From a bacterium (lineage in GTDB: Bacteria; JACRDZ01; JAQUKH01): a stretch of 39,523 bases of DNA. The position numbers and the translations under genes were made by a program. The stretch covers positions 1 to 39,523 of the forward strand of contig JBDROR010000247.1 of assembly GCA_043809805.1 (NCBI GenBank), read 5' to 3'. Shown here piece after piece: positions 769 through 23,082 of the stretch (position 1 is its first letter; each line of letters starts with the position of its first letter). The notes under the pieces are model-generated. The model ran no database searches. It was not told where the DNA came from and saw only the letters and a list, made by a program, of their open reading frames with translations.

Positions 769-1620
769 TCAAACTCCTACCTGCCCTGCTACTTTTTCCC
801 AATCTCCTCCGGAATTGGCTATTTTTATAATTTTTCCTATTTTTACAATATCTTTCGAAAGAGCAGAAAAATCTGATTTAGTGTCTTCAATAATACCTAA
901 CAAAATCAAATCTCTTTTTATTACTTTATTGAATCCAATGTAATTTTGTAAATCTTCTTCAAATATTGGAATTATTATATGAAATAAACAGCTTAAAGTA
1001 AGTATTATATTATTTATTGCCATTTTTAAAGAATCTTCATTTAAACTATAGATTAATGTAATTTTTTCTTTTGCCTTCTTCTCCCATATTTTTTTAAGTT
1101 TTTCCATGTTTCTAAAATTTTTTGAATGACTCATTAAACACATAATTTTATAAATAAATTCCCAATCTATATTAAGATGATCTTTACAAAAAGATGTAAC
1201 ATTAAACTGTATTTTCCCTTTTCTATCAACAAATATAGCTTCCCATTCCTTTGGATAACAAGATAGGAATATTATTCTAAAAAATGTTTCATACGCACTC
1301 CTACATAACATTATCGACTCATCATAATATCCGTTAATCAAAATTTCAAAAGAACAATGCAAAGTTTTTAATGCTTCGGGATACAAAAGATTTTGAAATT
1401 TTTTATGATTTTCCCACTTATCGCTGGGGACATAATTCAAATAATCTATAACCAATGTCAACTCTTGAAAAGAATCTTCAAAATCTTTAACAAACGGACC
1501 ATAACTGTTTAGAACAATATTCTTGTGTTTTTTAATATATTCATAAATACCCAAAGTTATTTTTGAGGGCTCATTGCTTCTGCTTTCATCTATAAGTAAT
1601 TTTAATTTTTCTTTGTCCAT
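769..1620 (-). CDS. Hypothetical protein, third gene of the AbiL-like unit; no domain recognised with confidence
   Basis: 283-aa ORF whose start overlaps the RloB-like gene by 19 nt. The motif INGYYDESIMLCRSAYETFF faintly recalls DUF5677/AbiV-type helical proteins. Confidence 0.6.
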   Translation of the reverse strand: MDKEKLKLLIDESRSNEPSKITLGIYEYIKKHKNIVLNSYGPFVKDFEDSFQELTLVIDYLNYVPSDKWENHKKFQNLLYPEALKTLHCSFEILINGYYDESIMLCRSAYETFFRIIFLSCYPKEWEAIFVDRKGKIQFNVTSFCKDHLNIDWEFIYKIMCLMSHSKNFRNMEKLKKIWEKKAKEKITLIYSLNEDSLKMAINNIILTLSCLFHIIIPIFEEDLQNYIGFNKVIKRDLILLGIIEDTKSDFSALSKDIVKIGKIIKIANSGGDWEKVAGQVGV

Positions 1621-2144
1621 AAGAAATATCCCCGCATCCCTTTCAAAATCTCTTCCAACTCCGGAATATTTTTTCGCCGCGCTTCAAACATTTCACGAGA
1701 AAATATTGCAGGGTAAGCGCGTTTATCCATTTTTTTATCACCCGAAAGATAATTTCGTTCAAATTCTTTCTTGCACATAACAGAGTAAGCTGTAACCTGT
1801 GAAAAATTAGGATACTGAAGAATCGCTAAAAATAATCCTTCAATATTTGGTGTTGCTTTCAGTATCCTGATTTTTTTTGTGTGCTTATTTATCTTACAAT
1901 CATTTTCCGATAACCTATCCGCGTCGATAAGCACAAAACATTTATCATAAGCCCTGCTCCCGCATAAACGTTTTGCTTTCTGAACAACACATTTGGGCGA
2001 ACCACCAGATCCACATTCAATTTTTACTACAATGTCATCGTCCCGTGTAACATACAGTTCTTTTAAATACTGCAGAAATGCTTTTTCTGTAGGGCCTTCT
2101 CCGACTATTAAAATTGCTGTTTTGGTACGTCTGGCCGGTTTCAT
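1602..2144 (-). CDS. RloB-like (Toprim-like) protein, AbiLii-like
   Basis: 180 aa. N-terminal TAILIVGEGPTEKAFLQYL and later CFVLIDADR fit the RloB pattern of a conserved Glu plus a DxD. There is an ATGA overlap with the upstream ATPase gene. Confidence 0.65.
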   Translation of the reverse strand: MKPARRTKTAILIVGEGPTEKAFLQYLKELYVTRDDDIVVKIECGSGGSPKCVVQKAKRLCGSRAYDKCFVLIDADRLSENDCKINKHTKKIRILKATPNIEGLFLAILQYPNFSQVTAYSVMCKKEFERNYLSGDKKMDKRAYPAIFSREMFEARRKNIPELEEILKGMRGYFLWTKKN

Positions 2145-3358
2145 ATATTTGGAACCGCTCCATATTTACCTGCCAGATATTTCGCGTAAATGTTATCATC
2201 TCTTCGCACACCTTTTAATTCATCAAGCCGATAAAGCTCGCTTTTACAATCTTTCTTTTTCTCAACAAGTATAATTTGCTCTTTTTCAAGATGATTAAGC
2301 ACTTCAAGCGAATGAGAAGTAAAAATAAGCTGGCTGTTTTTTGGATTCTTAACCGGGTTTACAAACAATTCGATTATATGCGGTATCGTATGCGGATGAA
2401 GGTCAATTTCAAGTTCATCTATAACAGCTATTCCTCCATGTTCAATCGCAGGAAAAAGAAAGTGAAGAAGTACAAACATATTTTTTGTACCGCTTGATTC
2501 ATAATTAAAAGGAAGTTTATACAACTTTTCATTTACCTTATGAACTCCATATGGTAAATTAACTTTCTTTTTATCTCCAGTTTTGGAATTATGGACTTCA
2601 CCTTCTTCGATTAAAACCCCATCGAATCCAAAGTCAATATCCTTTAAAAATTGAATAACTTTAGCAAAAATATTTTTATTTTTAACATATGATTCTGTTG
2701 CTTCTAAAATCCTTTTTTCTCCGAGAGAAGATATATCCCATGCTTTTCCCGCTCGATTAACATTGCTTATAATATTTTGCCAAAAAACAACAATGTCTGT
2801 TAAGACACTATTTTTGATGGCTACTCCCACTGAAACTAAGGATACATTTTTTCGTAATATTTTTTTTACCACCTCTGTTTCTAAACTAATATCTTGAACA
2901 ATGTCGTAACTTTCAGTTTTAGCATCCCAATTTCGTTTGAATAAATAGTTGAAATGCTGTGTTTCTTTCTTCTGGTATAGTTCTTCTTTAACAACATGTG
3001 TCCTGCATAAATACAAAATATATTTATAAACTTTTTTATTATGGTCAAATATTATTTCAAACTCAGAAACACTGTTTTTCTCTTCAGAAAATTTAAAATG
3101 ATCTATCGGAATTTCCTCTTTCTCACCCTCCAAACCAAAAAAAGAATTTCGGACAAACCAGCTAACAAATGCCAATGCCTTAAGCGCGTTCGTCTTGCCG
3201 GATGCGTTTGGCCCGACAACAATCATCACTTTACTAAGCGATTCAGTGTCGAAAAACATATTGTTTTTTGTCTCAATTCCTTTTCGAATATCCTCAAATG
3301 AGATTGTTGCCTCATCCGCAAAAGAACAAAAATTCTTAAATTTAAATGAATAAATCAT
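2141..3358 (-). CDS. AAA_21/ABC-type ATPase, AbiLi-like
   Basis: 405 aa. Walker A is GPNASGKT, Walker B-like is IAVIDELEIDLHP, and FTSHS lies downstream. Confidence 0.85.
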   Translation of the reverse strand: MIYSFKFKNFCSFADEATISFEDIRKGIETKNNMFFDTESLSKVMIVVGPNASGKTNALKALAFVSWFVRNSFFGLEGEKEEIPIDHFKFSEEKNSVSEFEIIFDHNKKVYKYILYLCRTHVVKEELYQKKETQHFNYLFKRNWDAKTESYDIVQDISLETEVVKKILRKNVSLVSVGVAIKNSVLTDIVVFWQNIISNVNRAGKAWDISSLGEKRILEATESYVKNKNIFAKVIQFLKDIDFGFDGVLIEEGEVHNSKTGDKKKVNLPYGVHKVNEKLYKLPFNYESSGTKNMFVLLHFLFPAIEHGGIAVIDELEIDLHPHTIPHIIELFVNPVKNPKNSQLIFTSHSLEVLNHLEKEQIILVEKKKDCKSELYRLDELKGVRRDDNIYAKYLAGKYGAVPNI

Positions 3359-4391: not shown

Positions 4392-5030
4392 ATGCTAACA
4401 AGTTGGCGAAAAAACGTCGTCCCCGCGAAGGCGGGGAACCAGAAAAATAATTTAAGAACACTGGATTCCCGCTTTCGCGGGAATGACGTATTGGGGTTAT
4501 GGATAATTTTGGCATTTTTGCTTTCTTTCTGCAGTATCGCCCAAAGGAATGATGGAAATAATCCGCATAATCTTGCGGCTAATTCAGAAAATTGTCTTTA
4601 TTGCCACAACAAAAGCAACATTCCTGCAGAAAGGGAAAGCTTGACAAGAGCCAGGCATACACATAAATTTAAATTAGAAATAGACTGCTGCAGTCAATGT
4701 CATATAATGGACGATACCAGAAGTAAAACCCCGAGGTTTAAAAAAAGTGTTACTGACTTATGCATTAAACCATGTCACAGCGGCGGGGCGTTAGGGGTAA
4801 GTCATCCCGTGGAGGTTGTTCCTGACTTTAAAGTGCCGGACTTTCTACCCCTGGAAAATGGGGAAGTTACCTGCGGGACATGCCATAATCCGCATAGCAG
4901 CCCGATAATAAAAACTAAGTCTTTAATAGGATGGAAAGGGGGAAAATCTTATTTCCTCAGAGTGGATAATTCACATGGAGAGCTATGCAGGACGTGCCAT
5001 GAGGCAAGTAATTGGCACAAAGAAAAATGA
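4392..5030 (+). CDS. Small multihaem c-type cytochrome (4 CXXCH); true start probably downstream, e.g. TTG 4491
   Basis: Motifs CLYCH, CSQCH, CGTCH, CRTCH, plus CIKPCH. The first ~33 codons (VVPAKAGNQ...DSRFRGND) are translation of a hairpin repeat. A signal-like LGLWIILAFLLSFCSIA follows. Confidence 0.75.
   Translation: MLTSWRKNVVPAKAGNQKNNLRTLDSRFRGNDVLGLWIILAFLLSFCSIAQRNDGNNPHNLAANSENCLYCHNKSNIPAERESLTRARHTHKFKLEIDCCSQCHIMDDTRSKTPRFKKSVTDLCIKPCHSGGALGVSHPVEVVPDFKVPDFLPLENGEVTCGTCHNPHSSPIIKTKSLIGWKGGKSYFLRVDNSHGELCRTCHEASNWHKEK
4425..4488. repeat. Hairpin repeat pair (family C, gtcattcccgc..gcgggaatc type)
   Basis: ccccgcgaaggcgggg, and ctggattcccgctttcgcgggaatgacg. The latter is nearly identical to 36300-36327. 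Confidence 0.8.
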
Positions 5031-5047: not shown

Positions 5048-6172
5048 ATGATAAAAGAACTAAAAAAATTAGTCCGTCCAAACCTCTTTAAAATTTCCCC
5101 CTATATCCCCGGCAAGTCAAAAGAGGAAATTTGCGGAGAATTTAACCTGCAAAAAGATGCTGTTATAAAAATGGCTTCTAACGAAAATGATTTGGGCGTA
5201 CCTGACTTTATTACCAAGACAATAAGAGAATGTTTGGATGAAATATATTTGTATCCGGAAGGATGCGGGAAAGAAGTTTGTAAAAAACTGGGACATTTGT
5301 GGGGAATTTCTCCGGATAATTTTATACTCGGGAACGGGTGTGATGAAATTATTTCTATGATTTGTGAGACATTTTTGAATCCGGGCGAAGAGGTAATTAT
5401 AGGAAATCCCACGTTTAGTTATTATGAAATTGCCAGCCGTATATCTGACGCCAAATGTATTTTCACGCCGTTAAAAAATTATAAATATGATCTTGCGGGA
5501 ATTTTAGAAACGATTACTTCAAAAACAAAACTGGTTTTTATTTGCAACCCCAATAATCCTACGGGAACAATCGTGACAAAAGAAGAAGTCGATAAGTTCC
5601 TTCTTTTATTACCGGATCATGTAATAGCGATTTTTGACGAGGCATACGCGGAATATGTGGATGATCCGAATTTCCCAAATAGCGTGGAATATATCAAGGG
5701 AGATACTGAAAAGAACGTAATTATTTTAAGAACGTTTTCTAAGGTCTATAGCCTTGCGGGACTGAGAATTGGGTATGGTATCGCAAGCAATGAAATCATA
5801 AAATACCTTAACCTTGTCAGAAAGCCATTTAATGTGAATAGATTAGCCCAGCACGCGGCATTGATTTCTTTGGAACATAAAGAATGGCTGGATAAATCGA
5901 GGAAGATGGTTTTTGACGGGAAAGAATATCTTTATAAACACCTGGACAAATTAGGGCTTCGATATATTCCGACTCAGGCCAATTTTTTATTGGTTGAATT
6001 AGGGGCTAATGCGAAAATAATTTCTGACAAATTACTGGCTTGCGGAATAATCGTCCGCCCAACAGCCAGTTTTGGGCTGCCTGATTTTATCAGAGTGACC
6101 ATAGGCACCAAAGAGCATAATAAAAGGTTTATCGAGGCTCTTGAGAAGAACAGCAATATATTCTCAATTTAA
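5048..6172 (+). CDS. hisC: Histidinol-phosphate aminotransferase
   Basis: 374 aa. MASNENDLG, NPNNPTG and the FSKVYSLAGLRIGYG lysine motif are typical class-II aminotransferase HisC features. Confidence 0.9.
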   Translation: MIKELKKLVRPNLFKISPYIPGKSKEEICGEFNLQKDAVIKMASNENDLGVPDFITKTIRECLDEIYLYPEGCGKEVCKKLGHLWGISPDNFILGNGCDEIISMICETFLNPGEEVIIGNPTFSYYEIASRISDAKCIFTPLKNYKYDLAGILETITSKTKLVFICNPNNPTGTIVTKEEVDKFLLLLPDHVIAIFDEAYAEYVDDPNFPNSVEYIKGDTEKNVIILRTFSKVYSLAGLRIGYGIASNEIIKYLNLVRKPFNVNRLAQHAALISLEHKEWLDKSRKMVFDGKEYLYKHLDKLGLRYIPTQANFLLVELGANAKIISDKLLACGIIVRPTASFGLPDFIRVTIGTKEHNKRFIEALEKNSNIFSI

Positions 6173-6394
6173 AAGCACAAAAACCTGTATTTTACGAAGT
6201 TCGTATTTTGTAACATTACGGGCTTTTTACGAAATATAAAACTAATTTATTGTAATAAAGCATCAAAAATTAGTGAAAAGTGTGTAATTATTGTTAAAAT
6301 TTCCGGCAATTATGAACTTCGTATATTAATTGTTGTCAGAGAAAAAATAAATTAAAAACCATTGTGAAGTTGTATATTCTGAAAGGAGAAAATA

Positions 6395-7498
6395 TTGAAA
6401 AAAAGCGTTTTTATCTCCTCAACATTTGATGATCTAAAAGAGATTAGAAAAAAAGTTTGGCAATTATTAAAAGAACACGATGTGATAATTAAGGGAATGG
6501 AGGATTTTGGGGCAAGAAAAGCAAAACCATTAGAAACATGCCTTAATGAAGTATCTCAATCTGACATTTATATTGGGATAATCGCTTTCCGATTGGGAAC
6601 AATTGATGAAAAAACAGGTAAGTCAATTACCCAACTTGAATACGAAAAAGCCTTGGAATTGGGTAAAGAGATATTAATATATTTTATGGACGATAAATTA
6701 TCTTCTATTGCTCCTATTTATGTAGATAAAGGCTCAGATGCGGATGCACTTAAAATATTTAAAGAAACATTAAAAGAAAATCATACAGTTGACTTTTTTA
6801 TCAACCCAGATGATTTATCTAATAAATTATCTAATAGATTTTCCATATTACTTACCAAATTGAATCCAGAACCAATTCAAGAAAAAGATAAATCAAAAGG
6901 CATACTGCAGAAATTTATTGTGATGCCAAAAATTCTTAGTGGTTTTGAAATTGAATGCAAGCTAAAAATTAACAGTAGCCCATTTCCTTTATCAAACGAG
7001 ATATGTAGAAATTTTAACTTCCAATTTGGAGAGACGGCTGGATTTGGAATAGAGTTCATAGATCCAAAGATAAAAGAAAATCCAATTGACCTACTTGTTG
7101 TTGAAAAATATTTGTTTGATGATTTTATTAAGAATAGTAAGTCAGAAGATGAGTTTAGTGTAGAGCTTTTATTTTCGAAAAATAGTGCAGAAAAAATATC
7201 CACATTTTTTAATAAGAAAAGACTTAGTATTGAAATCGAGAATCCGAAATACGATCCATCTATTCCAGAATCTGATTCAAATATATTATCTTCAACAACA
7301 TCTGTTTTTACCTTGGGAAATTTATTTGGAATGAAGTATAATCCAAAATATATTTATAAAACTATAGTTGAAAAAGGCGAAGGGCAAGTATTAGCAAGAT
7401 TAAAATCAATTAAAAATACCATAAATAAAGAATTAGAAACTGACAACAAAGCGCCAGACTGTGTGAAAACTCGGTTTTCCAAAAACAAGACCCAATAA
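6395..7498 (+). CDS. DUF4062-domain protein with an unknown C-terminal region of about 250 aa
   Basis: TTG start preceded by AGGAG. N-terminus VFISSTFDDLKEIRKKV...CLNEVSQSDIYIGIIAFRLG...SITQLEYEKALELGKEILIYF matches the DUF4062 pattern. Confidence 0.7.
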   Translation: MKKSVFISSTFDDLKEIRKKVWQLLKEHDVIIKGMEDFGARKAKPLETCLNEVSQSDIYIGIIAFRLGTIDEKTGKSITQLEYEKALELGKEILIYFMDDKLSSIAPIYVDKGSDADALKIFKETLKENHTVDFFINPDDLSNKLSNRFSILLTKLNPEPIQEKDKSKGILQKFIVMPKILSGFEIECKLKINSSPFPLSNEICRNFNFQFGETAGFGIEFIDPKIKENPIDLLVVEKYLFDDFIKNSKSEDEFSVELLFSKNSAEKISTFFNKKRLSIEIENPKYDPSIPESDSNILSSTTSVFTLGNLFGMKYNPKYIYKTIVEKGEGQVLARLKSIKNTINKELETDNKAPDCVKTRFSKNKTQ

Positions 7499-7557
7499 AA
7501 TCAAGGGTTTACAAGTTAAGAAATCCCAAAAAATGGGGTTTTCACACAGTCTGGCGC
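7451..7557. repeat. Perfect 20-bp inverted repeat with a 67-nt spacer
   Basis: gcgccagactgtgtgaaaac at 7451-7470 and gttttcacacagtctggcgc at 7538-7557. The left arm encodes the last residues of the DUF4062 protein. Confidence 0.85.
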
Positions 7558-7649
7558 TTCAAGCGACGCCTAACGGCGCGCCTGAGCTAAGACGTTGCAA
7601 GAGAAAAAATAGGAAATTAAGATTAAAGAAAAATAAAGAGGATAAGTTG

Positions 7650-8399
7650 ATGATAAATGATGAAATTACATTATTTAATGAATCGATAACTGAATGGTCA
7701 GAGAAATGGTGGTGGGGATATTGTTTTGATGAAAATGGAATAACAAGTGACTTTAAAAAAGATATGGAATTATATTTTCCATTTTTTCTTGAACATGATC
7801 CCAAAATATTAATTCATGAGAATTTAGTTGATTTTTCTTCGACAACCTACAACCATAAAATTGAAAATATTGAGAAGTTCCGTGAAAATATTATAAAATG
7901 GAAATACGGCTCTCAATATTATGAAATAAACTATAAAAATTCACTAAAAATAAAAAATGGAAATAGTATTGATTGTGTTTTTAACCATAGTTCTTTAGTT
8001 AGTCGAATTTTTTGGAAACATATCTATAATCCTTTAAGTTACCCAATTTTTGACCAAAGGACACTACGAACGTTTGCTCTCCTTTTTAATAAATCAAATG
8101 AATTTATACCTCTAAATCATTTGTGGATAGGTGGCGTTCCTACGGGAACAAATATTGAAAAGTATTACGATTCATGTTTCAAAAAAATTATAATCAATTC
8201 CATTAAAGAAATTACAAATGATATAGAAAAATTTTTATTATTAAGAAAAATTGATTATGCCTTGTTTGCATTCGATAAATTTATAATTTCAAAATCAATT
8301 AATAAAACAATACCCATATTTAAAAAAATCGTTGAAATATGTGATGAAAAAATACAAAATTTTACTTTCAGCAAATGTAATTTTAAAACATCGGACTAA
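7650..8399 (+). CDS. Hypothetical protein (249 aa), no recognisable domain
   Basis: The ORF track opens at 7533, but that part is translated from the inverted repeat and a GC-rich patch. ATG 7650 is preceded by AAGAGGA about 7 nt upstream. Confidence 0.55.
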   Translation: MINDEITLFNESITEWSEKWWWGYCFDENGITSDFKKDMELYFPFFLEHDPKILIHENLVDFSSTTYNHKIENIEKFRENIIKWKYGSQYYEINYKNSLKIKNGNSIDCVFNHSSLVSRIFWKHIYNPLSYPIFDQRTLRTFALLFNKSNEFIPLNHLWIGGVPTGTNIEKYYDSCFKKIIINSIKEITNDIEKFLLLRKIDYALFAFDKFIISKSINKTIPIFKKIVEICDEKIQNFTFSKCNFKTSD

Positions 8400-8662
8400 C
8401 AAATCATTGCAAATAAAATTAATAGTTTATCTTGGATAATAATTGCTAAATTCAATTTAGAAAAGTAGAAGGTAAATTTAATAAAAAAATTGGCACCTCT
8501 GTTTCCCAAAACTAAATCTCGGTATAATTCAATTAATTTGTGATATAATCAGCTTTACAAATAAAAAATAAAAGAAATTAAAAAAAGGAAAAATGAATGG
8601 CTGGATTATTGATCATAAAATCATCAAATAAATATGTTATACTTTAAGAAGGAAAAAATAAT

Positions 8663-8932
8663 ATGCCAGTTATAAGTATGTTTTATGGAATTATAATATC
8701 AATGTTTTATATTGATAATAGACGCCATAAAAAACCACACATTCATGTGCAATATCAAGGCGAAGAAGCAGTTATTTCTATACCCGACGGGAAAGTGCTT
8801 GAAGGTTCTATTAAAGCGTCAAAACTAAAACTTGTGCAGGCATGGATAGAAATACATAAGGAAGATCTTACGGCTGATTGGGAACTGGCGAAAAAAGGGC
8901 AAAATGTTTTCACAATCGAACCACTGAGGTGA
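8663..8932 (+). CDS. DUF4160-domain protein
   Basis: MPVISMFYGIIISMFYIDNRRHKKPHIHVQYQGEEAVISI is the characteristic DUF4160 N-terminus. Confidence 0.75.
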   Translation: MPVISMFYGIIISMFYIDNRRHKKPHIHVQYQGEEAVISIPDGKVLEGSIKASKLKLVQAWIEIHKEDLTADWELAKKGQNVFTIEPLR

Positions 8933-8935
8933 AAT

Positions 8936-9199
8936 ATGAATCCAAGAGTTAAAAAAGTAAAACCTGAACAAAACTTCAAATTAAGAATTTCTTTTGATAA
9001 TGGCGAAGTAAGAATTTTTGACATGTCACCACATCTTGATTTAGGTATATTCAAGGAACTAAAAAATACTACCTATTTCCGCCACGTAAAACCGCGTTAT
9101 GGCACTATAGCTTGGCCACATGGTCAAGATATCTGTCCCGATACCCTTTATCAAGAAAGCATCGTCACCAAGGGCGTACATAAAAGCACAAAAAAATAA
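8936..9199 (+). CDS. DUF2442-domain protein
   Basis: FKLRISFDNGEVRIFDMSPHL...TIAWPHGQDICPDTLY matches the DUF2442 pattern. It starts 4 nt after the DUF4160 gene. Confidence 0.7.
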   Translation: MNPRVKKVKPEQNFKLRISFDNGEVRIFDMSPHLDLGIFKELKNTTYFRHVKPRYGTIAWPHGQDICPDTLYQESIVTKGVHKSTKK

Positions 9200-9330
9200 A
9201 TTAAAATTTTAACCAAGCGCTTCCGGCGACGACTTACAGCTGCACCTGACCTTTTCCGGTTAAAAATAAATAAAAGGAAAAGATGAAAGTAACGTTGCTT
9301 TTAAGCACACAATGTGCTAATATATGAAAC

Positions 9331-9630
9331 GTGAATTCTTATAGATGGGATAGCGCAAAAAACGAACAACTTAAAGAACAACGAGGTATTGGTTTTGAAC
9401 AGATAGTTATGCATGTTGAACGTGGTGATATGATTGAAATTGTTGACCATCCAAACAGAGTTAAATATCCACACCAAAAGATGTTAGTGGTAAATGTTAA
9501 AGACTATGTTCATCTTGTTCCATTTGTTCAAAAAGACGATGAAATGTTTTTAAAAACAATTATTCCAAGCCGTAAGGCAACAAATAAATACCTGACTGCC
9601 GTCAGGCAAGTTTTAAGAGGTGAAAAATGA
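9331..9630 (+). CDS. BrnT-like (DUF497-like) toxin
   Basis: YRWDSAKNEQLKEQRGIGFEQIV resembles the BrnT N-terminal motif. GTG start, and a 4-nt overlap with the antitoxin gene. Confidence 0.55.
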   Translation: MNSYRWDSAKNEQLKEQRGIGFEQIVMHVERGDMIEIVDHPNRVKYPHQKMLVVNVKDYVHLVPFVQKDDEMFLKTIIPSRKATNKYLTAVRQVLRGEK

Positions 9631-9923
9631 AAAAATTAATATTAGATGAAGAAGAAAAAGAAATATTAGAATCTTTTGAGCGAGGAGAATGGAAACCTGT
9701 AAAGAATCTAAAAGCGGAAATTAAAAAACATCAGGGATATGCCAGAAACACTTTAAAAAAAGATAAAAGAGTAAACATTAGAATTTCAGCAAAAGTGCTT
9801 GAAGACATTCAAACCAAAGCAATAGAAGATGGAATTCCATATCAAACATTGATGTCAAGCGTTTTGCATAAATTTGCTGCTGGGCGTTTAATGGAAAGAA
9901 AAGAAGCAACAGGACATAATTAA
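9627..9923 (+). CDS. BrnA/CopG-like antitoxin
   Basis: KKDKRVNIRISAKVLEDIQTKAIEDGIPYQTLMSSVLHKFAAGRL is the typical ribbon-helix-helix BrnA-type C-terminus. Confidence 0.65.
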   Translation: MKKLILDEEEKEILESFERGEWKPVKNLKAEIKKHQGYARNTLKKDKRVNIRISAKVLEDIQTKAIEDGIPYQTLMSSVLHKFAAGRLMERKEATGHN

Positions 9924-9985
9924 TAGTGACGCCGCAATGAATATAGAAATTACTAACCATGTGAAGATTATACAAGGAGCAGAAC

Positions 9986-11971
9986 ATGTCAATAGAATCC
10001 GTAATGAAAGAACAAAGAATATTTTATCCTCCCAAAAAAATAAGCGAAAAGGCTTATATCAAAAGTATGGAAGAATACGAGAAGCTTTATAAAGAATCTG
10101 TGGATGAACCGGAAAAATTTTGGGCGGGTATGGCGGAACAAAATATTTCGTGGTTTAAAAAATGGGATAAAGTCATGGAATATGATTTCTCAAATATTGG
10201 CGAGGTTGAAGGGCCGTTTGTTAAATTTTTTCAAGGCGGCAAACTAAATGTTTCTTATAACTGCCTTGACAGGCATCTCAATTCATGGAAAAAAAATAAA
10301 GCCGCGATTATTTGGCAGGGAGATCATGAGAATGAACGCCGCACGGTTACCTATCAGGAATTGCATACGCAAGTTAACAGGTTTACCAATGTGCTAAAAA
10401 AACACGGAGTAAAAAAAGGCGATGTGGTTGTTATTTATCTACCAATGCTTATTGAGCTATCTGTCGCGATGCTTGCATGCAGCCGTATCGGCGCGATACA
10501 TTCAGTGGTTTTCTCCGCGTTTAATTCATCCGCCCTTCAGAACAGAATTCTTGATTCTAATGCGAAAATGGTTATTACGGCGGATGCGGGTTTCCATGGC
10601 GGGAAAGTTGTTGAATTAAAACAAAAAGCGGATGACGCGCTTGAAAAATGTAAATGTGTGGAAAAGGTTATTGTTTTTAACCGTGCGAATACAAAGGTTA
10701 ATATGAAAACGGGCAGAGATTTCTGGTGGTCGGAAGAGATGAATTCTCATGATATTAAAAATATTTGCCCTCCTGCACAAATGGATTCGGAGGATCCGCT
10801 TTTTATTTTGTACACAAGTGGAAGCACCGGCAAGCCGAAAGGTGTTTTGCATACTACGGCCGGTTATTTGCTTTATTCAAATCTTACCTTTAGATTGATC
10901 TTTGATGTGAAGGATGAGGATATTTTTTGGTGCACTGCCGATATTGGGTGGATAACGGGGCATTCCTACATTGTTTATGGCCCATTGTCAAATGGGGCAA
11001 CGACGCTTATGTTTGAGGGTATTCCTACTTATCCTGAGGCTGACAGATTTTGGAAGATAATAGAGGATTATAGGGTAAATATTTTTTATACTGCGCCGAC
11101 CGCTATAAGGGCATTGATGAGGTTTGGCGAAGAATTGCCGGATAAACACGATTTATCAAGCCTGAGGATTCTTGGGTCGGTAGGTGAGCCGATTAATCCT
11201 GAGGCATGGATGTGGTATTACCGAGTGATTGGGAAAGAGAAATGTCCAATAGTGGATACATGGTGGCAGACTGAAACAGGAGGAATATTGATTACTCCTC
11301 TTCCCGGAGCCACTCCGACAAAACCCGGATCGGCGTCAAGGCCGTTTTTTGGCGTTGTCCCTGAGGTGTTAAAAGAAGATGGCACAGTGGCAAATAAAAA
11401 TGAGGGAGGCTATTTGGTTATTAAAAAACCATGGCCTGGTATGATCCGCGGGGTATACGGCGATAAAAAAAATGAGCTTATAAAAAAATTTTATTTTTCA
11501 AAATTTTCCGGCAATTATTTAACAGGTGATGGATGTTATATTGATAATGAGGGGTTCTACTGGCTTTTGGGGAGAATTGATGATGTAATAAATGTTTCAG
11601 GCCATCGTTTTGGAACAGCGGAAATTGAAAGCGCGCTTGTTTCCAATGAGAAGGTTGCGGAAGCCGCGGTGGTAGGATACCCGCATGATGTTAAAGGGCA
11701 AGGGATTTATTGTTTTGTTACACTAAAAAAAGGAATAGTTCAGTCAGATGCCTTAAAAAAAGAATTAACAGGACATATCAGGACACAAATAAGCCCTGTT
11801 GCCACACCGGATAAAATCCAGTTTACCGACGCGCTTCCAAAAACCCGTTCAGGGAAAATAATGCGCCGTATTTTAAGAAAGATTGCGGAGGGAGATATCG
11901 ATTCGATAGGCGATACAACTACTTTGGCCGATCCGTCGGTTGTGGAATCGCTGGTTAAAGACAGAGAATAA
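9986..11971 (+). CDS. acs: Acetyl-CoA synthetase (acetate--CoA ligase)
   Basis: 661 aa with [20 protein letters not shown] and the C-terminal [17 protein letters not shown] motifs. AGGAG lies upstream. Confidence 0.95.
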
Positions 11972-14072: not shown

Positions 14073-14148
14073 TGGAGGCGGCAATCGGACTTGAACCGAT
14101 GAATAGCGGTTTTGCAGACCGCCGCCTTAGCCACTTGGCTATGCCGCC
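14073..14148 (-). tRNA. tRNA-Cys(GCA): tRNA-Cys (anticodon GCA) with encoded CCA
   Basis: Reverse strand is GGCGGCATAGCCAAGTGGCTAAGGCGGCGGTCTGCAAAACCGCTATTCATCGGTTCAAGTCCGATTGCCGCCTCCA. It has a 7-bp acceptor stem, anticodon loop CTGCAAA, T-arm ATCGG-TTCAAGT-CCGAT and discriminator U73, as expected for Cys. Confidence 0.9.
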
Positions 14149-14189: not shown

Positions 14190-17100
14190 TTATTCCAATC
14201 CCCTTCCGACCTCCCGCATCCTTGGAATATGATAATATTTATAACGGAAAATGGTATCAAACCTGTGGCAATCGGCACACAAGGTAAAATCTTTTTTCCG
14301 CAGGAAACTATTAGAAGCTGTTCCTTCAGTATTTTCCCCCGGCGCATTATTAGGCTTTCCAGCCTCCCATTGATGCGGGTTATGGCACGATCCACAGGAT
14401 ATAATGCCGCTTGTGACCCTGCTCCCGTTGCCTTTATCAAACAATGGAAGAGACCCGGGTTCACGCTCAACGCGCCTTCCTATATTAGTAGCAATAATAT
14501 CTGTAGGATGCGTATCAACCACAGGAATTTTGCCGGCAGCGCGCTGATTTATCGCATGACAGCTCTTACAAAGCATAGACGGCGTTTCAGGGTTTATTTG
14601 TGGTATTTTAGCCCACATAAGAGGCTTTTCAAAGGCATTGTGAGGGATATGGCATGCACTGCATGGCCCGCCTTCCTCCGCTGTTTGATTGATCACATTT
14701 TTTTCAGATGGCGCGGTAATTCTCATATCATGATCCGTGTTAACAACATATTTTTTGTTCGAATGACATGCTGTACACATCTCAGAATTTGTATTGTTTT
14801 CTCTTAAGAAACTATTTTTAATATCCCCTTCGACTTTCATGCCAGGCCCGTTTTCTTTTTTATCGGGATCCCATTGATGAAGGTTGTGACAGGTGGAACA
14901 AAGCACTTTACCCTTTTCCATATCATTGGTTCCCTGCAATGTAAATATGGGGAATGGGGATTCTCCTCTTAACCCCAGAAGGCTAAAATCTATACCGACT
15001 GGATGTGTCGCGCCAAGCTGTTTAGTATTCCCGCACCCGTCTTTATTATGACAGCTGCCGCATAAAGGCGTGATGCTATCAATCCCGTTCCCCTTTTGTT
15101 TTGCCCATAATTTCTCCGCAGAAGCATTATGAGGGACATGGCAGGCGCCGCAAGGACCTGATTCAAAAACGGTCTGTCTAAGCATATTTTTTTCTTCCGG
15201 CGCGGAAATTTTCATATCATGGTCTGTCCCTACAACAAAACCTTGCGGAGTATGACAGTCCCGGCATAAAGTTGCTTCAGGATCGGAAGCAAGCCGCAGA
15301 AAACTATTCAAAGCCGTTCCCTCAATATTTTCTTTAGCGTTTCCTTTTGTATTCCTTTTGGAATCCCAGACATGCGGATCGTGGCAGGAATAGCAATATA
15401 CTTTATTAAATGTAGGAAGTGTTGTTATTCCGTCAACAGTTACAATGGGCGCATTTGTAATAGGTACATTAACCGGATGGGAAAATTGCCCAAGCTGTTT
15501 CTTTTCACCGCATTTATTATTTGAATGGCATGAAAAACAGAATTTGGAAGAAACATCGGCAGTGTCATTGCCGGAAGTATCACCTAATTTCCTTGCCCAA
15601 ATCTTTGGGCCTAATCCATTATGCGCAACATGGCACGGACTGCAAACCCCGCCTGTTTTACGTGTATTATTCTCAAAATTTTTCACCAATGGAGCAGTGT
15701 TCGCGAGGTCATGGTCTGTCCTCTCAACCAGAGCTTGTTTTTCATGGCAATCTTTACACAAATCAGGTGATGGGAAGTTGGATATCCTTAAAAAACTATT
15801 TGTTTGATTCCCCTCTGTATTCTTACGGAGAGATACTTTCTTTTTAGCTGGATCCCAAACATGCGGATCGTGGCATGAGTTGCAATATACATTACCATTT
15901 TCTAAAGATTCACCTTTATCATTAAATAACGGCAGTGTAGAACTCCCATCCGCGTCTGAAATAGGGACAGCCGTTGGATGAGTAAAGGTTTCGACACCGT
16001 CGGTTAATATCTTTTTATCCTCCCCGGGATTCTTCTCGGAGTCGCTTCCGACACTATGACAACTAAAACATAAATTGCCGGACGTATCTTTCCCAATTCG
16101 CGGCACATCCCTTGCCCACATTTTGCGTTCTTTTCCATTATGCGCCAGATGGCAGGCGCTGCATATTCCTCCATCGGAACTCGTTTTCTTCTCAATATTT
16201 TTCGCGTCAGGGGAAATTACAGACATGTCATGTTCGGTATTTTCAATAAAGAATTTGTCTTCATGACAATCTTTGCAAAGGCCGGATTTAGCGTCATTTG
16301 GTTTACGTAAAAAACTATTTGTGAAATCACCTTCTCTATTTTGGCTGAAAGTTGTATCCAGCATGTTTGGATTCCAAACATGCGGATCATGACAGCTTGT
16401 GCAAAAGATATTCCCATCTGCTTTTTGTTGCCCCATCTCATCAAACAAAGGCAGTGAGGCTGTCCCATCGGCTTTTTTTATTGATTTATCCGTTGGATGT
16501 GAATATTTATCAATTGGTTTTTTGCCGGCAGAACCATCCTTATTGTGACAGCTGGTACAAAGCTGTGTGACAAAATCATTTTTACCGGAAAGTTTTTTTG
16601 CCCATCCATGAGAAAAATGGCAGGACCTGCAGATTCCGGACTGTGCTGCCGTTTGGTCCTGAATATTTAGTTCGGCTGGAGCGGTAATAGCTAAGTTATG
16701 GTCGGAATAAATTATGGTTTTTTTATCCTTATGACAGTCCAAACAAATTGATGATTGAACATTTTTCGTAACTAAAAGCGGGGTATCTTTAATCCCCTTG
16801 TGAGGAAGATGACATGTAGCACATATTACTTCCTTGTTTGGGCCAAGAGCCCCCCCTGCCCGGACAATATCTTCAGCAATTTTCACTTTATCTGAAATGA
16901 TGTTAACAGGATGCTTTATCGAGCCTATGGAATCGCGCATTCCACGGATTACTTTATTTTCGTGGCAGATATTACATAACGAGGAGAATTTATTGGCTGT
17001 TAAAAGATTTCGTGTTGCAGGCGCGGAATCATGTATTTTATGACAGCTTTCACAAACCAATCTTCCCTCTACGCCCTTTATTGCGCCTAATGCTAAAAGG

Positions 17101-18368
17101 GTTGTGGAAATTACCGCTTCAGATGGAATTAAATTAATTGGATGTGATCCATTTTCATATTTTGACTCATGACATTTACGGCATAACCCGGAATTTTTAT
17201 TAGAAATAGCCATAATTTTACCGTCAGTTCCATCATTAGCGCTATTATCTGCGGCATTATGAACCTTGTGGCAGCTTTCACATGTGACCAAATTATTTGG
17301 CCCTAGTTTCAAACTTTTGGGGACACTTTCTGGGTGCAATTCGTTAGTTAACAGCATGTTTACAGGATGTGTCCCTGTATTTTTTCCGCCAGTATCTTTA
17401 TTAAGTTTATCCCTATGGCATGTTTCACAGAAAGAGGAATTCACATTGTTGTCCACTAAAAGACGTGTTTCTTTTACCGCAGAGTGCGAAGAATGGCAGG
17501 AAACACATATCAAACTTTTGTCTTTGCCCATATTAGACGGATTTCCGGAATGCCATCGATACGGAATCGACGCCTTTTTTTGAGGAACGTCAACGGGATG
17601 AGAATCATGGCCGGTTCCATCCTTTTTGCCCGGACTATTTGTATGGCACGCCTCACAAAGCTCTGCGGACGTCCCGTCTTTTACCGGAAGCAATAAAAGA
17701 TTTTCCGCTTCGGCGGAATGGATCCTATGACAGCTTTCACAAATTATCTTATTAGGTTTATCCCCGCTGTACGCCCCTGCATCTTTTAGCCCTTTTGAAA
17801 AAGGGAGAGAATCTACATTTATCGGATGCATTCCTTCCTTCGGGCCGCTAACCTTATCCTTATGGCAGTCCATACACATTTCCGAGTTCTTGTTTTCTAC
17901 GCGAAGATAACAGGCGCGTTCCGGCACCACACCATCCTGGATACCTATAGCATGGGCAGTATGACAGCTTCCACAGTCTAATTCACCATAGAAACCATCT
18001 TCATCTTCATATGCGAAATTATTTACAAAATACAAAGGATATTTTTTTGAAATAGCTGCTCTTTCAAATGGAACTACCTTTATTGGATGGGAGATCTTTT
18101 TGCCCCAGACTTTGATGCGGGAATCCACCATAGAGCCGTCATGACAACTATAACAAATCCACTCATCCGCAACATATCGTTTAGCGCCAATATATCGCGG
18201 GATACGATCAGGGTTGTCTTTTTTTGAATGATCAGGATGCCATGCATAATGACAAACAGCACATTCCTGATTGGCGCTTTCAGGCATAACACTTCTGGCC
18301 CAAATTAGTTTTTGGGCAAAAAGCAAACATAGCATCGTTATTAGGAAAAAGGGAAAAAGACGTTTCAT
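14190..18368 (-). CDS. Giant multihaem c-type cytochrome, 34 CXXCH motifs
   Basis: 1392 aa with signal peptide MKRLFPFFLITMLCLLFAQKLIWA. I counted 34 CXXCH by eye. The C-terminal ~780 aa are tandem four-haem modules. Confidence 0.9.
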   Translation of the reverse strand: MKRLFPFFLITMLCLLFAQKLIWARSVMPESANQECAVCHYAWHPDHSKKDNPDRIPRYIGAKRYVADEWICYSCHDGSMVDSRIKVWGKKISHPIKVVPFERAAISKKYPLYFVNNFAYEDEDGFYGELDCGSCHTAHAIGIQDGVVPERACYLRVENKNSEMCMDCHKDKVSGPKEGMHPINVDSLPFSKGLKDAGAYSGDKPNKIICESCHRIHSAEAENLLLLPVKDGTSAELCEACHTNSPGKKDGTGHDSHPVDVPQKKASIPYRWHSGNPSNMGKDKSLICVSCHSSHSAVKETRLLVDNNVNSSFCETCHRDKLNKDTGGKNTGTHPVNMLLTNELHPESVPKSLKLGPNNLVTCESCHKVHNAADNSANDGTDGKIMAISNKNSGLCRKCHESKYENGSHPINLIPSEAVISTTLLALGAIKGVEGRLVCESCHKIHDSAPATRNLLTANKFSSLCNICHENKVIRGMRDSIGSIKHPVNIISDKVKIAEDIVRAGGALGPNKEVICATCHLPHKGIKDTPLLVTKNVQSSICLDCHKDKKTIIYSDHNLAITAPAELNIQDQTAAQSGICRSCHFSHGWAKKLSGKNDFVTQLCTSCHNKDGSAGKKPIDKYSHPTDKSIKKADGTASLPLFDEMGQQKADGNIFCTSCHDPHVWNPNMLDTTFSQNREGDFTNSFLRKPNDAKSGLCKDCHEDKFFIENTEHDMSVISPDAKNIEKKTSSDGGICSACHLAHNGKERKMWARDVPRIGKDTSGNLCFSCHSVGSDSEKNPGEDKKILTDGVETFTHPTAVPISDADGSSTLPLFNDKGESLENGNVYCNSCHDPHVWDPAKKKVSLRKNTEGNQTNSFLRISNFPSPDLCKDCHEKQALVERTDHDLANTAPLVKNFENNTRKTGGVCSPCHVAHNGLGPKIWARKLGDTSGNDTADVSSKFCFSCHSNNKCGEKKQLGQFSHPVNVPITNAPIVTVDGITTLPTFNKVYCYSCHDPHVWDSKRNTKGNAKENIEGTALNSFLRLASDPEATLCRDCHTPQGFVVGTDHDMKISAPEEKNMLRQTVFESGPCGACHVPHNASAEKLWAKQKGNGIDSITPLCGSCHNKDGCGNTKQLGATHPVGIDFSLLGLRGESPFPIFTLQGTNDMEKGKVLCSTCHNLHQWDPDKKENGPGMKVEGDIKNSFLRENNTNSEMCTACHSNKKYVVNTDHDMRITAPSEKNVINQTAEEGGPCSACHIPHNAFEKPLMWAKIPQINPETPSMLCKSCHAINQRAAGKIPVVDTHPTDIIATNIGRRVEREPGSLPLFDKGNGSRVTSGIISCGSCHNPHQWEAGKPNNAPGENTEGTASNSFLRKKDFTLCADCHRFDTIFRYKYYHIPRMREVGRGLE

Positions 18369-19624: not shown

Positions 19625-20446
19625 TTACATACCCTTTTTAGTCCCGAAGAGACTACTCGGAATATAAAACCTGCCATATCGCCCGATAATTCCCGCGGCT
19701 TCAGTTCCGACTAGTTGGTCCATACGCGCTTCTGAATATCCAAGGGCTTTGAAAGATAGAACACTTTTAACACGATGACAATCTGTGCAATCCAATCCGG
19801 GATTAGATACTGCCTGATGTATGCGTCCTTTGATTATTCCTTGTTGACTGGTAGTCAACCTGCCCTGCATGGATACGAAAGGTCTGGCAAATTTTTCATC
19901 ATCCATCCGCATAGTTATCATTTTAAAACGTCCGTTTTCTTCAACATACGGCGTAATTAAAGGGGCACTGCCCCTTCCGGTAATCTCTTCATCAAAAGCA
20001 GAAATAAGCTGGTTAACATAAGGTTTTATCCTTATCAAGGGTTCTACTTTTCTTTCCCCTTTTTTTAACTCTGCTATACTGGCACTGCTTCCGTCAAACC
20101 ATCGATACCCGCTAATTCCGCCCTTTACATCTTTTACATGACAGGCATTGCAGTCTGTAAACGGAATATGAAAATTAAGCATAGCCCTTGTAACCTTATT
20201 TTTTGCATGGGGCATATCTCCATGACAAAGAACGCAAATCAAAGGATTTTGATCCTCGAAAGGGGCAGCATCTCCTTCTGTTTTGTTATGAAAATGGAAC
20301 TGCCGGGATTCCTTTTCGTTTACAATAAGTTTTTCTGTTAGCAGAATGTGATCCTCTCCTGACTTAATAGGTGCAACAAACGCCAACGCCACAGCGGAAA
20401 CCACAGCCACGGCCGCGCTTATCAATACATTACGTTTCTGCATCAT
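19625..20446 (-). CDS. Trihaem c-type cytochrome with an N-terminal anchor or signal
   Basis: 273 aa with CVLCH, CNACH and CTDCH. Hydrophobic N-terminus VLISAAVAVVSAVALAFV. SD-like AAGGGGGGT lies upstream. Confidence 0.75.
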   Translation of the reverse strand: MMQKRNVLISAAVAVVSAVALAFVAPIKSGEDHILLTEKLIVNEKESRQFHFHNKTEGDAAPFEDQNPLICVLCHGDMPHAKNKVTRAMLNFHIPFTDCNACHVKDVKGGISGYRWFDGSSASIAELKKGERKVEPLIRIKPYVNQLISAFDEEITGRGSAPLITPYVEENGRFKMITMRMDDEKFARPFVSMQGRLTTSQQGIIKGRIHQAVSNPGLDCTDCHRVKSVLSFKALGYSEARMDQLVGTEAAGIIGRYGRFYIPSSLFGTKKGM

Positions 20447-20471
20447 ATCCTACCCCCCTTTTCTTAAACTT

Positions 20472-20624
20472 AACCACAGAGAACACGGAGAAACCCTCCC
20501 TCTGTGTCCTCAAATTTAATCTTTTTATACCGTTTTTTAGCATTTCCACATTGCTCTTACCAAACCCAACTTACAACTGAGAACACTGAGAAATTCCTAG
20601 CTTTTCTCTGTGATCTCTGTGGTT
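20472..20624. repeat. Inverted repeat block of cacagagaacacggagaaa-type units
   Basis: aaccacagagaacacggagaaa at 20472-20493 pairs with tttctctgtgatctctgtggtt at 20603-20624 (20 of 22 complementary). Related internal units are ctccctctgtgtcctc and actgagaacactgagaaa. Confidence 0.8.
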
Positions 20625-20638
20625 CATTTTTTATTTCC

Positions 20639-21436
20639 TCATGTTTCTCTCTTTTCTTTTGCCACAATTTCATCATACCACATTTTACGCTCATGTATCA
20701 TTTCTTCTTCTGTCATTTTCCCTGTAATCCATGATTTAATCATTGGAAAATTTTCAGGGACAAAATGAACATTATAAAAATGGAATGTAAAAATAAAGAT
20801 AGTCGCCAAAAATGCCTCATAACTATGAATTGTAATACATACTGTCATCCACCACCAAGGCATGAAGGACATAACAAATTCCCTGAACAACAAGCACACA
20901 CCCGTGAGGCCGATCATTATTGTGCCAAATATGACGGCAAGATAATCAATTTTTTCCGCGTAAGCCCATTTTTTTAAGGCTGGCGGTTCCTTCTTTGTCC
21001 CAAAAAAATATCTAAACTTGTCGGCTATATCCCTACCATCTTTAGCCGATGGACACAAAGCAAGATCCCCCGTTTTCAACCTTGAAAAAAAGTTTTTAAA
21101 AGGGTTCCACCCTTCATGTATCCACCTGAAGATCAAATAACCAAAATGATAAACAGTTAATAACAAGCTCAAAATTCCACAAATACGGTGTATTACCGGT
21201 GCTATTTCCGGTCCGCCAAAGAGCATAAACAAAGGTTTAGAGTACGGCATATGCGGAAATTTTTGGGGCATTCCAGTCGCTATTAAAATCAAAAATGTAA
21301 CAGTCAAAACCAAATGCTGAATAATTTGATTAACAGTCAATCTTTGAAACAGCCTCGGCCCCCCGGTTCTCGCCGGCTTAGGGCTCGCCACCCCGGAACT
21401 CGCCCCCATGGGGCTCGTGCAACCAGAATATTCCAT
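20639..21436 (-). CDS. Membrane b-type cytochrome, FdnI/HydC-like
   Basis: 265 aa. The start of the fold, RLTVNQIIQHLVLTVTFLILIATGMPQKF, is typical. There are four to five TM segments with conserved His residues. AGGAG lies 8 nt upstream. Confidence 0.65.
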   Translation of the reverse strand: MEYSGCTSPMGASSGVASPKPARTGGPRLFQRLTVNQIIQHLVLTVTFLILIATGMPQKFPHMPYSKPLFMLFGGPEIAPVIHRICGILSLLLTVYHFGYLIFRWIHEGWNPFKNFFSRLKTGDLALCPSAKDGRDIADKFRYFFGTKKEPPALKKWAYAEKIDYLAVIFGTIMIGLTGVCLLFREFVMSFMPWWWMTVCITIHSYEAFLATIFIFTFHFYNVHFVPENFPMIKSWITGKMTEEEMIHERKMWYDEIVAKEKRET

Positions 21437-21475
21437 GATCCAACTCCTTTCAATCCCCCGACAGGAGACTTTTCA

Positions 21476-22642: not shown

Positions 22643-22648
22643 GATTTC

Positions 22649-22730
22649 ACCCCCTTGTTTCCTCCCCCCTTGTGGGGGAAGATTAAGGTGGGGGATGTAA
22701 TTTCAATCACTCTTACCCCTCACCCTGCCT
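22649..22730. repeat. C/G-tract hairpin repeat
   Basis: tcctcccccc-ttgt-gggggaaga followed by aaggtggggga and accctcaccctgcc. Its minus-strand copy supplies the SD for the upstream-reading cytochrome gene. Confidence 0.6.
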
Positions 22731-22800
22731 TTCCTCAAATTAACAAAAAAACAGCATTGATATTAACATAATAACAGTTCTTATGTCAATAAGGAAAAAA

Positions 22801-22989: not shown

Positions 22990-23010
22990 GTATATCCCCC
23001 CCTTCCGTAG

Positions 23011-23080: not shown

Positions 23081-23082
23081 AT

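Follow-up and report, generated by a model that had tools for sequence, protein, structure and literature searches.

Described DUF4062 systems and the locus under study

DUF4062 proteins were connected to bacterial immunity in three preprints of 2026, which bear out the domain as an NAD-targeting defence module that does not need a STAND NTPase (Osinski et al., bioRxiv 10.64898/2026.05.01.722283; Ibarra-Chavez et al., bioRxiv 10.64898/2026.06.25.731849; Le Mouellic et al., bioRxiv 10.64898/2026.09.04.749371). Here, a gene encoding a stand-alone DUF4062 protein, called gene A, was analyzed together with the gene that follows it, called gene B. Both genes lie in an AT-rich islet between a hisC-like aminotransferase gene and acs on a bacterial contig of 39,523 nucleotides (JBDROR010000247.1 of assembly GCA_043809805.1), which as a whole is referred to as the window. 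The product of gene A belongs to the general kind of single-protein DUF4062 NADases with a private AUX domain, the NADase activity being expected from its relatives, and B is, as judged from its distribution, an adjacent but independent gene that is not part of the system of A. The kind as such is already known from the preprints; new is A as a further member with an AUX of its own.

The first of these systems, Swarozyc, is a single protein described for KpSwz from Klebsiella pneumoniae, and in this work DUF4062 was identified as a TIR-like NADase (10.64898/2026.05.01.722283). KpSwz has ~330 amino acids (aa) and is composed of a DUF4062 core, a helical stalk and an AUX domain (PDB 10wc/11cq/11cv). 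The oligomer is autoinhibited and becomes activated upon binding of the phage portal, whereupon NAD+ is converted to ADP-ribose (ADPR) and nicotinamide resulting in abortive infection. KpSwz needs both E97 and AUX, the latter being a portal-binding module of the winged helix-turn-helix (HTH) type (10.64898/2026.05.01.722283). In the loci fetched here, Swarozyc homologues are common on viral and proviral contigs (L170, 4689-5711, and ~20 other IMG/VR loci within L105-L171); their identity to the KpSwz core amounts to 50-63%, and the GWVR motif, the coiled-coil stalk and the AUX are common to all.

The Evangelion systems are encoded by single genes as well and combine a conserved DUF4062 core with a diversified AUX, and they are tied to toxin-antitoxin (TA) modules and mobile DNA (10.64898/2026.06.25.731849). 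Eva01 from the Staphylococcus aureus plasmid pMW2, next to which the further lineages Eva02-04 were described, lowers NAD+ and requires F11, E87, W162 and the AUX; mutation of F11 and of E87-Y88 abolishes defence (10.64898/2026.06.25.731849). In the third study DUF4062 was renamed NIR and NAD+ depletion was reported for an Avs2, for Vulcan, in which NIR is combined with HEAT repeats, and for Vesta, which consists of the small NIR protein VstA and the alkaline phosphatase VstB (10.64898/2026.09.04.749371). Hydrolysis of NAD+ was shown for PsAvs2 and human TEP1, and the catalytic Glu residues are E97 in KpSwz, E87 in Eva01, E108 in PsAvs2 and E1008 in TEP1. Due to these preprints on its relatives, gene A can be annotated with reasonable confidence and is no longer just a protein with a domain of the DUF type.

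Gene A: DUF4062 core, AUX region and predicted function

The protein encoded by gene A (Table 1) carries DUF4062 at its N-terminus, in agreement with the first-pass annotation, which was made from the sequence without database searches. Pfam PF13271 (DUF4062) matches residues 5-86 with an E-value of 9.6e-25 and 87 bits (cut-off 24.7), covering 81 of the 82 model positions. The remainder of A has no match in Pfam, NCBIfam or PADLOC, and no P-loop domain and no STAND or NACHT NTPase was found in its 367 aa with Pfam and PADLOC. At least 420 homologues exist, mostly 310-350 aa long, which align over 75-99% of the length of A with 40-63% identity. They are distributed over Bacteroidota, Chloroflexota, Proteobacteria, Clostridia, Acidobacteriota and Heimdall-type archaea and are present also in IMG/VR viral contigs. 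The family is frequent among Bacteroidota and environmental metagenomes, for which validated defence systems are few.

An alignment of 36 family members revealed that the N-terminal half is nearly invariant, including F6-I-S-S-T10, D13, R18 and W22, the loop G34-M-E36-x-F-G-A-R, E52 and D57, and that the motif K76-S-x-T-Q-L-E82-Y83 is kept as well. E82 is invariant in 36/36 sequences and aligns with the alanine of the deposited KpSwz mutant E97A (PDB 10wc) and with the E87-Y88 motif of Eva01. As E82 falls onto the alanine of the E97A mutant, it is regarded as the catalytic equivalent, so that the search for a conserved catalytic Glu in DUF4062, proposed in the first-pass annotation, had a positive outcome.

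The homology to the characterized systems covers the core only. Searched against the PDB, the profile of the A family matches the KpSwz chains 10wc, 11cq and 11cv with an E-value of 1e-12, at profile positions 4-123 only, and TEP1 (PDB 11gz) with an E-value of 9e-6. A Swarozyc alignment was built from homologues in the fetched loci, among these an open reading frame (ORF) of L170 that aligns over its full length to KpSwz (E 4.5e-82), and its comparison by hhalign with the A-family alignment resulted in a probability of 99.5% and an E-value of 1e-22 for A residues 4-157, with nothing past residue 157. Eva01-like proteins from S. aureus plasmids show 32% identity to A, again in residues 1-163 only. 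For the first-pass description of about 250 residues without a motif downstream of DUF4062 this means that it is right in so far as no family match exists, but ~60 of these residues (~100-157) constitute a conserved extension of the core homologous to Swarozyc.

In the AlphaFold2 model of A (predicted local distance difference test, pLDDT, 79) a five-stranded alpha/beta domain (residues 1-100) is followed by two long helices (114-152) and by a mixed alpha/beta region (163-~340) with a low-confidence variable insert. For most of residues 1-100 the pLDDT is 85-95 and it dips to 66-75 at ~31-50, i.e., in the BB-loop region. Foldseek against the PDB retrieved plant TIR domains (RPS4, RPP1, L6), the TIR-APAZ protein of SPARTA, TIR-STING, nucleoside 2-deoxyribosyltransferases (NDT), BcmB and DNPH1 with probabilities of ~1.0 and template modelling (TM) scores to the target of 0.5-0.7. 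The previously stated relation of DUF4062 to both TIR and NDT folds is thereby borne out.

Comparing A with the described systems, the likeness is closest to Swarozyc: both are single proteins with an N-terminal DUF4062 core and a C-terminal AUX, the cores are homologous over A residues 4-157, E82 of A corresponds to E97 of KpSwz, the BB-loop motif GME-F is common to both and both are found in defence islands. They differ in that the AUX domains have no detectable relation (winged-HTH-type in KpSwz, predicted mixed alpha/beta in A), in that the GWVR motif and the coiled-coil stalk that follow the core in Swarozyc are absent in A, and in that A does not keep the Q/W/E motif. A fits the broad definition of Evangelion, a single gene with a DUF4062 core and a diversified AUX: F6 and E82-Y83 of A correspond to F11 and E87-Y88 of Eva01, no partner is conserved beside the A family (19 loci, 210 ORFs; a single gene would presumably suffice for defence), and the AUX was found only fused to DUF4062. 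It falls outside the Eva01 lineage in the narrow sense, as the AUX does not align and as the positions of the Q/W/E motif read P-L-x in the A family. Eva01 is furthermore shorter, its AUX is short, it is carried by plasmids of Firmicutes and it responds to functions of recombination or replication, whereas A is chromosomal and has an unrelated AUX of 190 residues. With Vesta and Vulcan, A has in common a DUF4062/NIR effector without STAND NTPase. In contrast to VstB, B is not an alkaline phosphatase (no Pfam or NCBIfam match) and is not conserved beside A, and the AUX of A, unlike that of Vulcan, is not a HEAT-repeat domain; neither HEAT nor other repeats were found in A by Pfam, and the model is mixed alpha/beta. 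NIR/DUF4062-Avs2, other NLR-like proteins and TEP1 possess the same catalytic domain family, but they combine it with a STAND/NACHT NTPase and repeat sensors, neither of which is present in A. Judged by sequence, A is not a Swarozyc, not a member of the Eva01 lineage and neither Vulcan, Vesta nor Avs.

The AUX of A is the part that sets this family apart. The C-terminal half shows weaker conservation within the family and is clearly homologous, with P178, S200, C204, G212 and F272 being invariant, and this AUX of ~190 residues is kept across at least five bacterial phyla and in some archaea. A profile of the AUX only, searched against a database of 5.8 billion proteins, retrieved solely DUF4062 proteins. 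In Pfam the AUX has no match and among PDB sequences no meaningful one; as a known sensor it was rejected, the best similarity to a PDB sequence being 27 residues of the F1 ubiquitin-like lobe of kindlin-2 (E 0.34, not significant). Comparison of the AUX profile with the Swarozyc alignment by hhalign gave a probability of 0.1%, and KpSwz was not matched by the AUX profile in the PDB at E<=10. Since neither the portal-binding AUX of Swarozyc nor the short one of Eva01 is related to the AUX of A, the latter probably recognizes a different phage cue. A protein of 299 aa encoded on the Clostridium estertheticum plasmid pCF007-E (L094, 360-1259) has DUF4062 and 44% identity to A residues 5-185, shares the junction motif KF-x-x-x-PK-x-x-G-x-E with A and then continues with an unrelated C-terminus; going by this alignment, it is a direct and clear case of AUX swapping at a conserved junction. 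What remains of value in this locus is the trigger of the AUX and, as described below, B as a rare family without structural match.

Taken together, A is best explained as a stand-alone abortive-infection protein, for which we assume a probability of roughly 0.7. The N-terminal 157 residues would constitute a TIR-like catalytic core with Glu82 as catalytic residue, and the family-specific AUX (~158-350) would act as sensor. By analogy to Swarozyc and Evangelion, A might be kept as an autoinhibited oligomer until a phage-derived trigger, which could be a protein or a replication intermediate, binds to the AUX and rearranges the TIR-like domains. The core would then hydrolyse NAD+, and the loss of NAD+ would halt the infected cell. 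The first-pass annotation had suggested an NAD- or nucleotide-targeting defence system without STAND NTPase formed by A and B. For A alone this is most likely correct, as single-protein relatives were shown experimentally to act in this way; as a pair of A and B it does not hold, as outlined below.

Several observations weigh against this assignment. The Q/W/E motif of the Evangelion and Swarozyc cores is absent in the A family, the aligned positions being P-L-E/x, and T48 and E52 are invariant instead; details of the active site of A may therefore differ. A is not matched by any model of PADLOC v2 (2023), which is explained by the database being older than the descriptions of 2026. The human proteins NWD1, NWD2 and NPHP3 carry DUF4062 yet show no NADase activity in vitro, so the presence of DUF4062 alone does not guarantee activity. 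Finally, some members of the A family are encoded amid ordinary metabolic genes, such as those for transporters, glycosidases and amino-acid biosynthesis.

The altered motif would also be in line with A being a defence effector with another chemistry, i.e., one that produces a signaling nucleotide or that cleaves nucleotides in the way of CMP/dNMP N-glycosidases. The Foldseek E-values for the CMP N-glycosidase BcmB, for DNPH1 and for nucleoside 2-deoxyribosyltransferases are similar to those of the TIR domains, activation of Eva01 perturbs several adenine metabolites (10.64898/2026.06.25.731849), and the authors of the Swarozyc study allow for DUF4062 activities past NADase (10.64898/2026.05.01.722283). 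However, every DUF4062 domain that was active in an assay formed ADPR(P) and nicotinamide from NAD(P)+ and no other products, and the core of A is homologous to Swarozyc with 99.5% probability and has the same catalytic Glu, so that another chemistry is considered unlikely.

The metabolic neighbours, together with the position of A between hisC and acs in the window, could furthermore indicate that A is no immune protein and acts as a housekeeping or regulatory nucleotide-metabolizing enzyme with the same fold. This is regarded as very unlikely in view of the patchy distribution across phyla, the guanine-cytosine (GC) content below that of the host, the absence of a conserved neighbourhood, the occurrence of the family in viral contigs and the frequent restriction-modification (RM), DRT, TA and transposase genes nearby. 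In addition, genes encoding DUF4062 were reported to be enriched close to defence genes (20% versus 3.9% expected; 10.64898/2026.09.04.749371).

The A-family genes have variable neighbourhoods, in which genes for defence and mobility abound. In a metagenome-assembled genome of Algoriphagus (L003, 5265-13308) the A-family gene (7227-8288) is located between the mod and res genes of a Type III RM system, in the order mod, DUF4062 gene, gene of a 616-aa protein, res; all are co-oriented and their ends overlap or nearly abut, and the 616-aa protein has weak PADLOC similarity to modules associated with prokaryotic Argonaute (pAgo) and SIR2 (E 4e-15). Other members are accompanied by a Type I restriction enzyme (L009), a PD-T4-6-like kinase (L012) or a Type II restriction endonuclease-like protein (L013), and Drt8 was seen twice. 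Further contexts contain genes for TIR_2, NUDIX, dCMP deaminase and RadC (L081), an MNT/HEPN pair with Fic (L085), a DDE transposase (L086) and an AAA_21 ATPase of 617 aa (L088).

Gene B and the absence of a conserved partner

The protein of 249 aa that had been noted after A is encoded by a real ORF. The ORF as called mechanically extends from 7533 to 8399 (288 aa), and its 5' part (7533-7649) is spurious, reading through the right arm of the hairpin described below. The ATG at 7650 is taken as the true start of B, as the homologues P0122 and P0123 begin there and as the DNA homology to L082 starts 8 bp upstream. B is under selection, with 79% and 44% identity to two homologues and long invariant blocks.

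The suggestion of the first-pass annotation that A and B form a compact two-gene system was not borne out by the survey of neighbourhoods, and it is refuted by the criterion given there, namely that the genes would not be neighbours in other genomes. Relatives of A were collected from 80 genome loci, five further contexts obtained by exact-protein look-ups and 80 viral-contig loci, and B was searched by tblastn in the 80 genome loci at first and later in 182 loci. B is absent from 170 out of 170 loci bearing DUF4062, and genes for DUF4062 or A-like proteins are absent from all 12 loci of the B family. An all-versus-all comparison of neighbours, done for 13 and then for 19 loci with full-length A-family members (window included), revealed, among the 210 ORFs up to 5 kb away, no family common to different loci except A itself (E<=1e-3). 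Downstream of the closest homologue of A (63% identity) no B was found in the 296 bp that can be read, which leave room for ~49 codons of a syntenic B, and for the closest homologue of B (79%) the 118 bp that precede the start of homology to the window contain nothing like the 3' end of A.

That A and B nevertheless work together locally, with B as a sensor, regulator or immunity-type accessory comparable to VstB with VstA, is hardly to be expected. The two genes are co-oriented and only 151 bp apart within the same low-GC islet, each start codon is preceded at a distance of ~50-60 bp by the 18-nt motif GTTGYMAGAGAAAAAATA, of which the window has no further copy, and Vesta is a known precedent for a two-gene DUF4062 system. 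Against this stand the mutual absence of B and DUF4062 in the surveyed loci, the missing synteny around the closest homologues as far as their short flanks reach, the conservation of the A family at full length without any partner, and B being neither an alkaline phosphatase nor a member of any other known family; both genes are moreover set apart by a strong hairpin, and B has a Shine-Dalgarno sequence of its own. Ruling out B as partner keeps a false two-gene system out of defence catalogues.

B itself belongs to a very rare family, for which an exhaustive HMMER profile search found 16 representatives among 1.84 billion proteins. In an alignment of 15 sequences H124, P128, P132 and D135 (motif HIxxPxxYPIFDQR) as well as D202, A204, L205 and F208 (motif RKIDxALFAFDK) are invariant, and these motifs, H-x3-P-x3-P-x2-D-Q and D-x-A-L-F-x-F, suggest that B may be an enzyme. 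The AlphaFold2 model is essentially all-alpha (pLDDT 92.4, predicted TM score 0.91). B has no match in Pfam, NCBIfam, PADLOC or PHROGs, and Foldseek against the PDB and BFVD gave nothing at E<=0.001, the best hit being MUTYH with E 4-9 and a probability of 0.08; one member of the family compared with DUF6308 reached an E-value of 0.25, which is not significant. As a rare and structurally unmatched family B deserves separate attention.

A likeness of YPIFDQR to the MutY motif FPILDGN, in the catalytic Asp loop of MutY and EndoIII, had raised B as a HhH-GPD/OGG-fold glycosylase, a lead that is unsupported: neither NCBIfam nor Pfam gives a match, hhalign against verified E. coli EndoIII resulted in a probability of 0.07%, and MUTYH is found by Foldseek only with the E-values given above. 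An origin of B as phage or plasmid gene was also rejected, as no match exists in PHROGs, BFVD, GenBank phages, PLSDB plasmids or IMG/VR.

Genes of the B family recur beside TA pairs, transposases, WYL regulators and nucleases. In three loci (L096-L098) they adjoin IS1595, DUF6364-PIN and MNT-type TA modules, and in another (L099) genes for WYL, ARPP-1, RNase H-like, integrase and NDT proteins. The gene downstream of the family member in L091 (1736-2773) encodes a protein of 345 aa without Pfam match, the C-terminus of which looks, by eye only, like PD-(D/E)xK (Mrr-like; D...FFCECK). The description that suits B best is that of a rare accessory gene of variable islands, which is independent of A and came into the same low-GC islet as A and the two TA-like pairs. 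A speculative and rather unlikely option is that B founds a new kind of defence-island gene, acting by itself in defence or counter-defence or having been recruited, in this genome alone, to assist the DUF4062 NADase.

Composition, repeats and surroundings of the islet

The islet of 3.8 kb (6173-9985) has a GC content of 0.298, with 0.293 for A and 0.248 for B, compared to 0.371 for the hisC-like gene, 0.410 for acs and 0.378 for the whole window. The GC content at third codon positions, 0.23 for A and 0.19 for B, shows the same contrast to the flanks, and the islet is AT-rich as had been stated. The low GC content and the patchy distribution across phyla point to a horizontal transfer of A. 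The TA pairs that had been reported after A and B are likewise seen by Pfam, first DUF4160/DUF2442 and then BrnT-like/CopG-BrnA-like (Table 1). An integration of the islet linked to a tRNA was rejected, as the sole tRNA of the window (14073-14148) is distant from it.

Table 1. Features in the window of 39,523 nucleotides, with positions counted from its first letter.
Feature	Positions	Strand	Remarks
Gene A, stand-alone DUF4062 (NIR/TIR-like) protein with C-terminal AUX	6395-7498	+	367 aa; TTG start; AGGAG 8 nt upstream
A core and conserved helical extension, residues 1-157	6395-6865	+	homologous to Swarozyc and Eva01
Glu82 codon, predicted catalytic	6638-6640	+	motif S-I-T-Q-L-E-Y-E; invariant 36/36; codon checked
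AUX region, family-specific mixed alpha/beta C-terminal domain, presumed sensor	6866-7444	+	residues ~158-350
Hairpin, 111 nt	7449-7559		22-bp perfect stem, 67-nt loop; covers last 16 codons and stop of A and extends into the A-B spacer
Gene B	7650-8399	+	249 aa; ATG start; GAGGA upstream; very rare family
DUF4160 and DUF2442 pair, putative toxin-antitoxin-like	8663-8932, 8936-9199	+	Pfam E 1e-23 and 3e-13, both above cut-off
BrnT-like toxin gene	9331-9630	+	Pfam 32.2 bits, just under the cut-off of 34.5
CopG/BrnA-like antitoxin gene	9627-9923	+	Pfam above cut-off; overlaps BrnT-like gene by 4 nt
AbiL-type abortive-infection system	1602-3358	-	3 kb upstream of A; PADLOC and Pfam
AbiLi ATPase	2141-3358	-	PADLOC E 4.8e-77; Pfam AAA_21
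AbiLii/RloB-like	1602-2144	-	PADLOC E 3.4e-8; Pfam RloB
gidA	25023-26903		
gidB	29191-29862		
YhcG/DUF1016 PDDEXK nuclease gene	29840-30856	+	inserted between gidB and downstream genes
parB	34715-35665		

The hairpin at the end of A folds as DNA with -39.6 kcal/mol (z = -8.0) and both of its arms are unique in the window. As it covers the last 16 codons, it explains why the C-terminal tail of A is longer than in most relatives. It resembles an inserted element. As a known RNA or terminator it was rejected, since Rfam gave only spurious miRNA-like matches below threshold and a T-tract is missing.

Further repeats surround both genes. The two copies of GTTGYMAGAGAAAAAATA are located at 6332-6349 and 7594-7611, and the motif may act as a promoter or operator common to both genes or may mark the boundary of a cassette. 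The heptamer TGACAAC at 7441-7447 is the inverse of GTTGTCA at 6332. A near-palindromic element of 18-21 nt, TTAYGAASTTCGTAT, has two copies ~120 bp apart in the spacer between hisC and A (6188-6208 and 6308-6328), which sit just upstream of the motif GTTGTCAGAG and could be paired operators or could form the two arms of one long, imperfect palindrome. Two GC-rich intergenic segments, GCGCTTCAAGCGACGCCTAACGGC at 7554-7577 between A and B and GCGCTTCCGGCGACGACTTACAGC at 9217-9240 between the DUF2442 and BrnT genes, are 79% identical, and similar GC-rich tracts flank homologues in L082, L084 and L091.

These features raise the question whether the islet arose as an array of cassettes, similar to an integron or to a cluster of attC sites lacking an integrase (CALIN), with A, B and the TA pairs acquired as separate cassettes and with recombination sites between them, an origin that would be compatible with A acting as an NAD+-depleting defence protein. 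All six genes of the islet are co-oriented with TA modules among them, ahead of A and of B alike lies a long imperfect palindrome (6188-6328; 7449-7559) with GTTG(T/C)(C/A)AGAG after it, the heptamer at 7441 is inverse to the sequence at 6332, the GC-rich segments recur, and B-family genes are found beside TA pairs elsewhere, too. Nevertheless, a strict scan for attC core sites (RYYYAAC ... GTTRRRY, 40-160 nt apart) was empty over 6100-10100, and no integrase was seen among the window ORFs scanned with Pfam, a scan outside of which ~6 ORFs of at least 120 aa fall (including 33890-34684 and 37754-39508). The geometry of the hairpin is also unlike attC, as its AAC/GTT ends point toward the loop and not the base and as 34 extra nt separate it from the GTTG motif. 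The integron/attC explanation was therefore rejected and a cassette array of this type is considered improbable. Whether cassettes or not, the palindromes and repeated motifs are compatible with a separate acquisition of A and B.

Upstream of the islet, the AbiL system occupies a low-GC stretch, and the adjoining ORF of 283 aa (769-1620, minus strand) has no family match. The window is chromosomal and contains gidA, gidB, parB, genes of a V-type ATPase and many multihaem cytochromes, and the presence of gidA, gidB and parB places it presumably near the chromosomal origin region. Multihaem c-type cytochromes are encoded at 4392-5030, 14190-18368 and 19625-24723, and the set includes a protein of 1392 aa with repeated paired-CXXCH motifs and an MtrC/MtrF-like protein; an NHL-repeat propeller is encoded as well. 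The host appears to be a low-GC bacterium specialized in extracellular or respiratory electron transfer.

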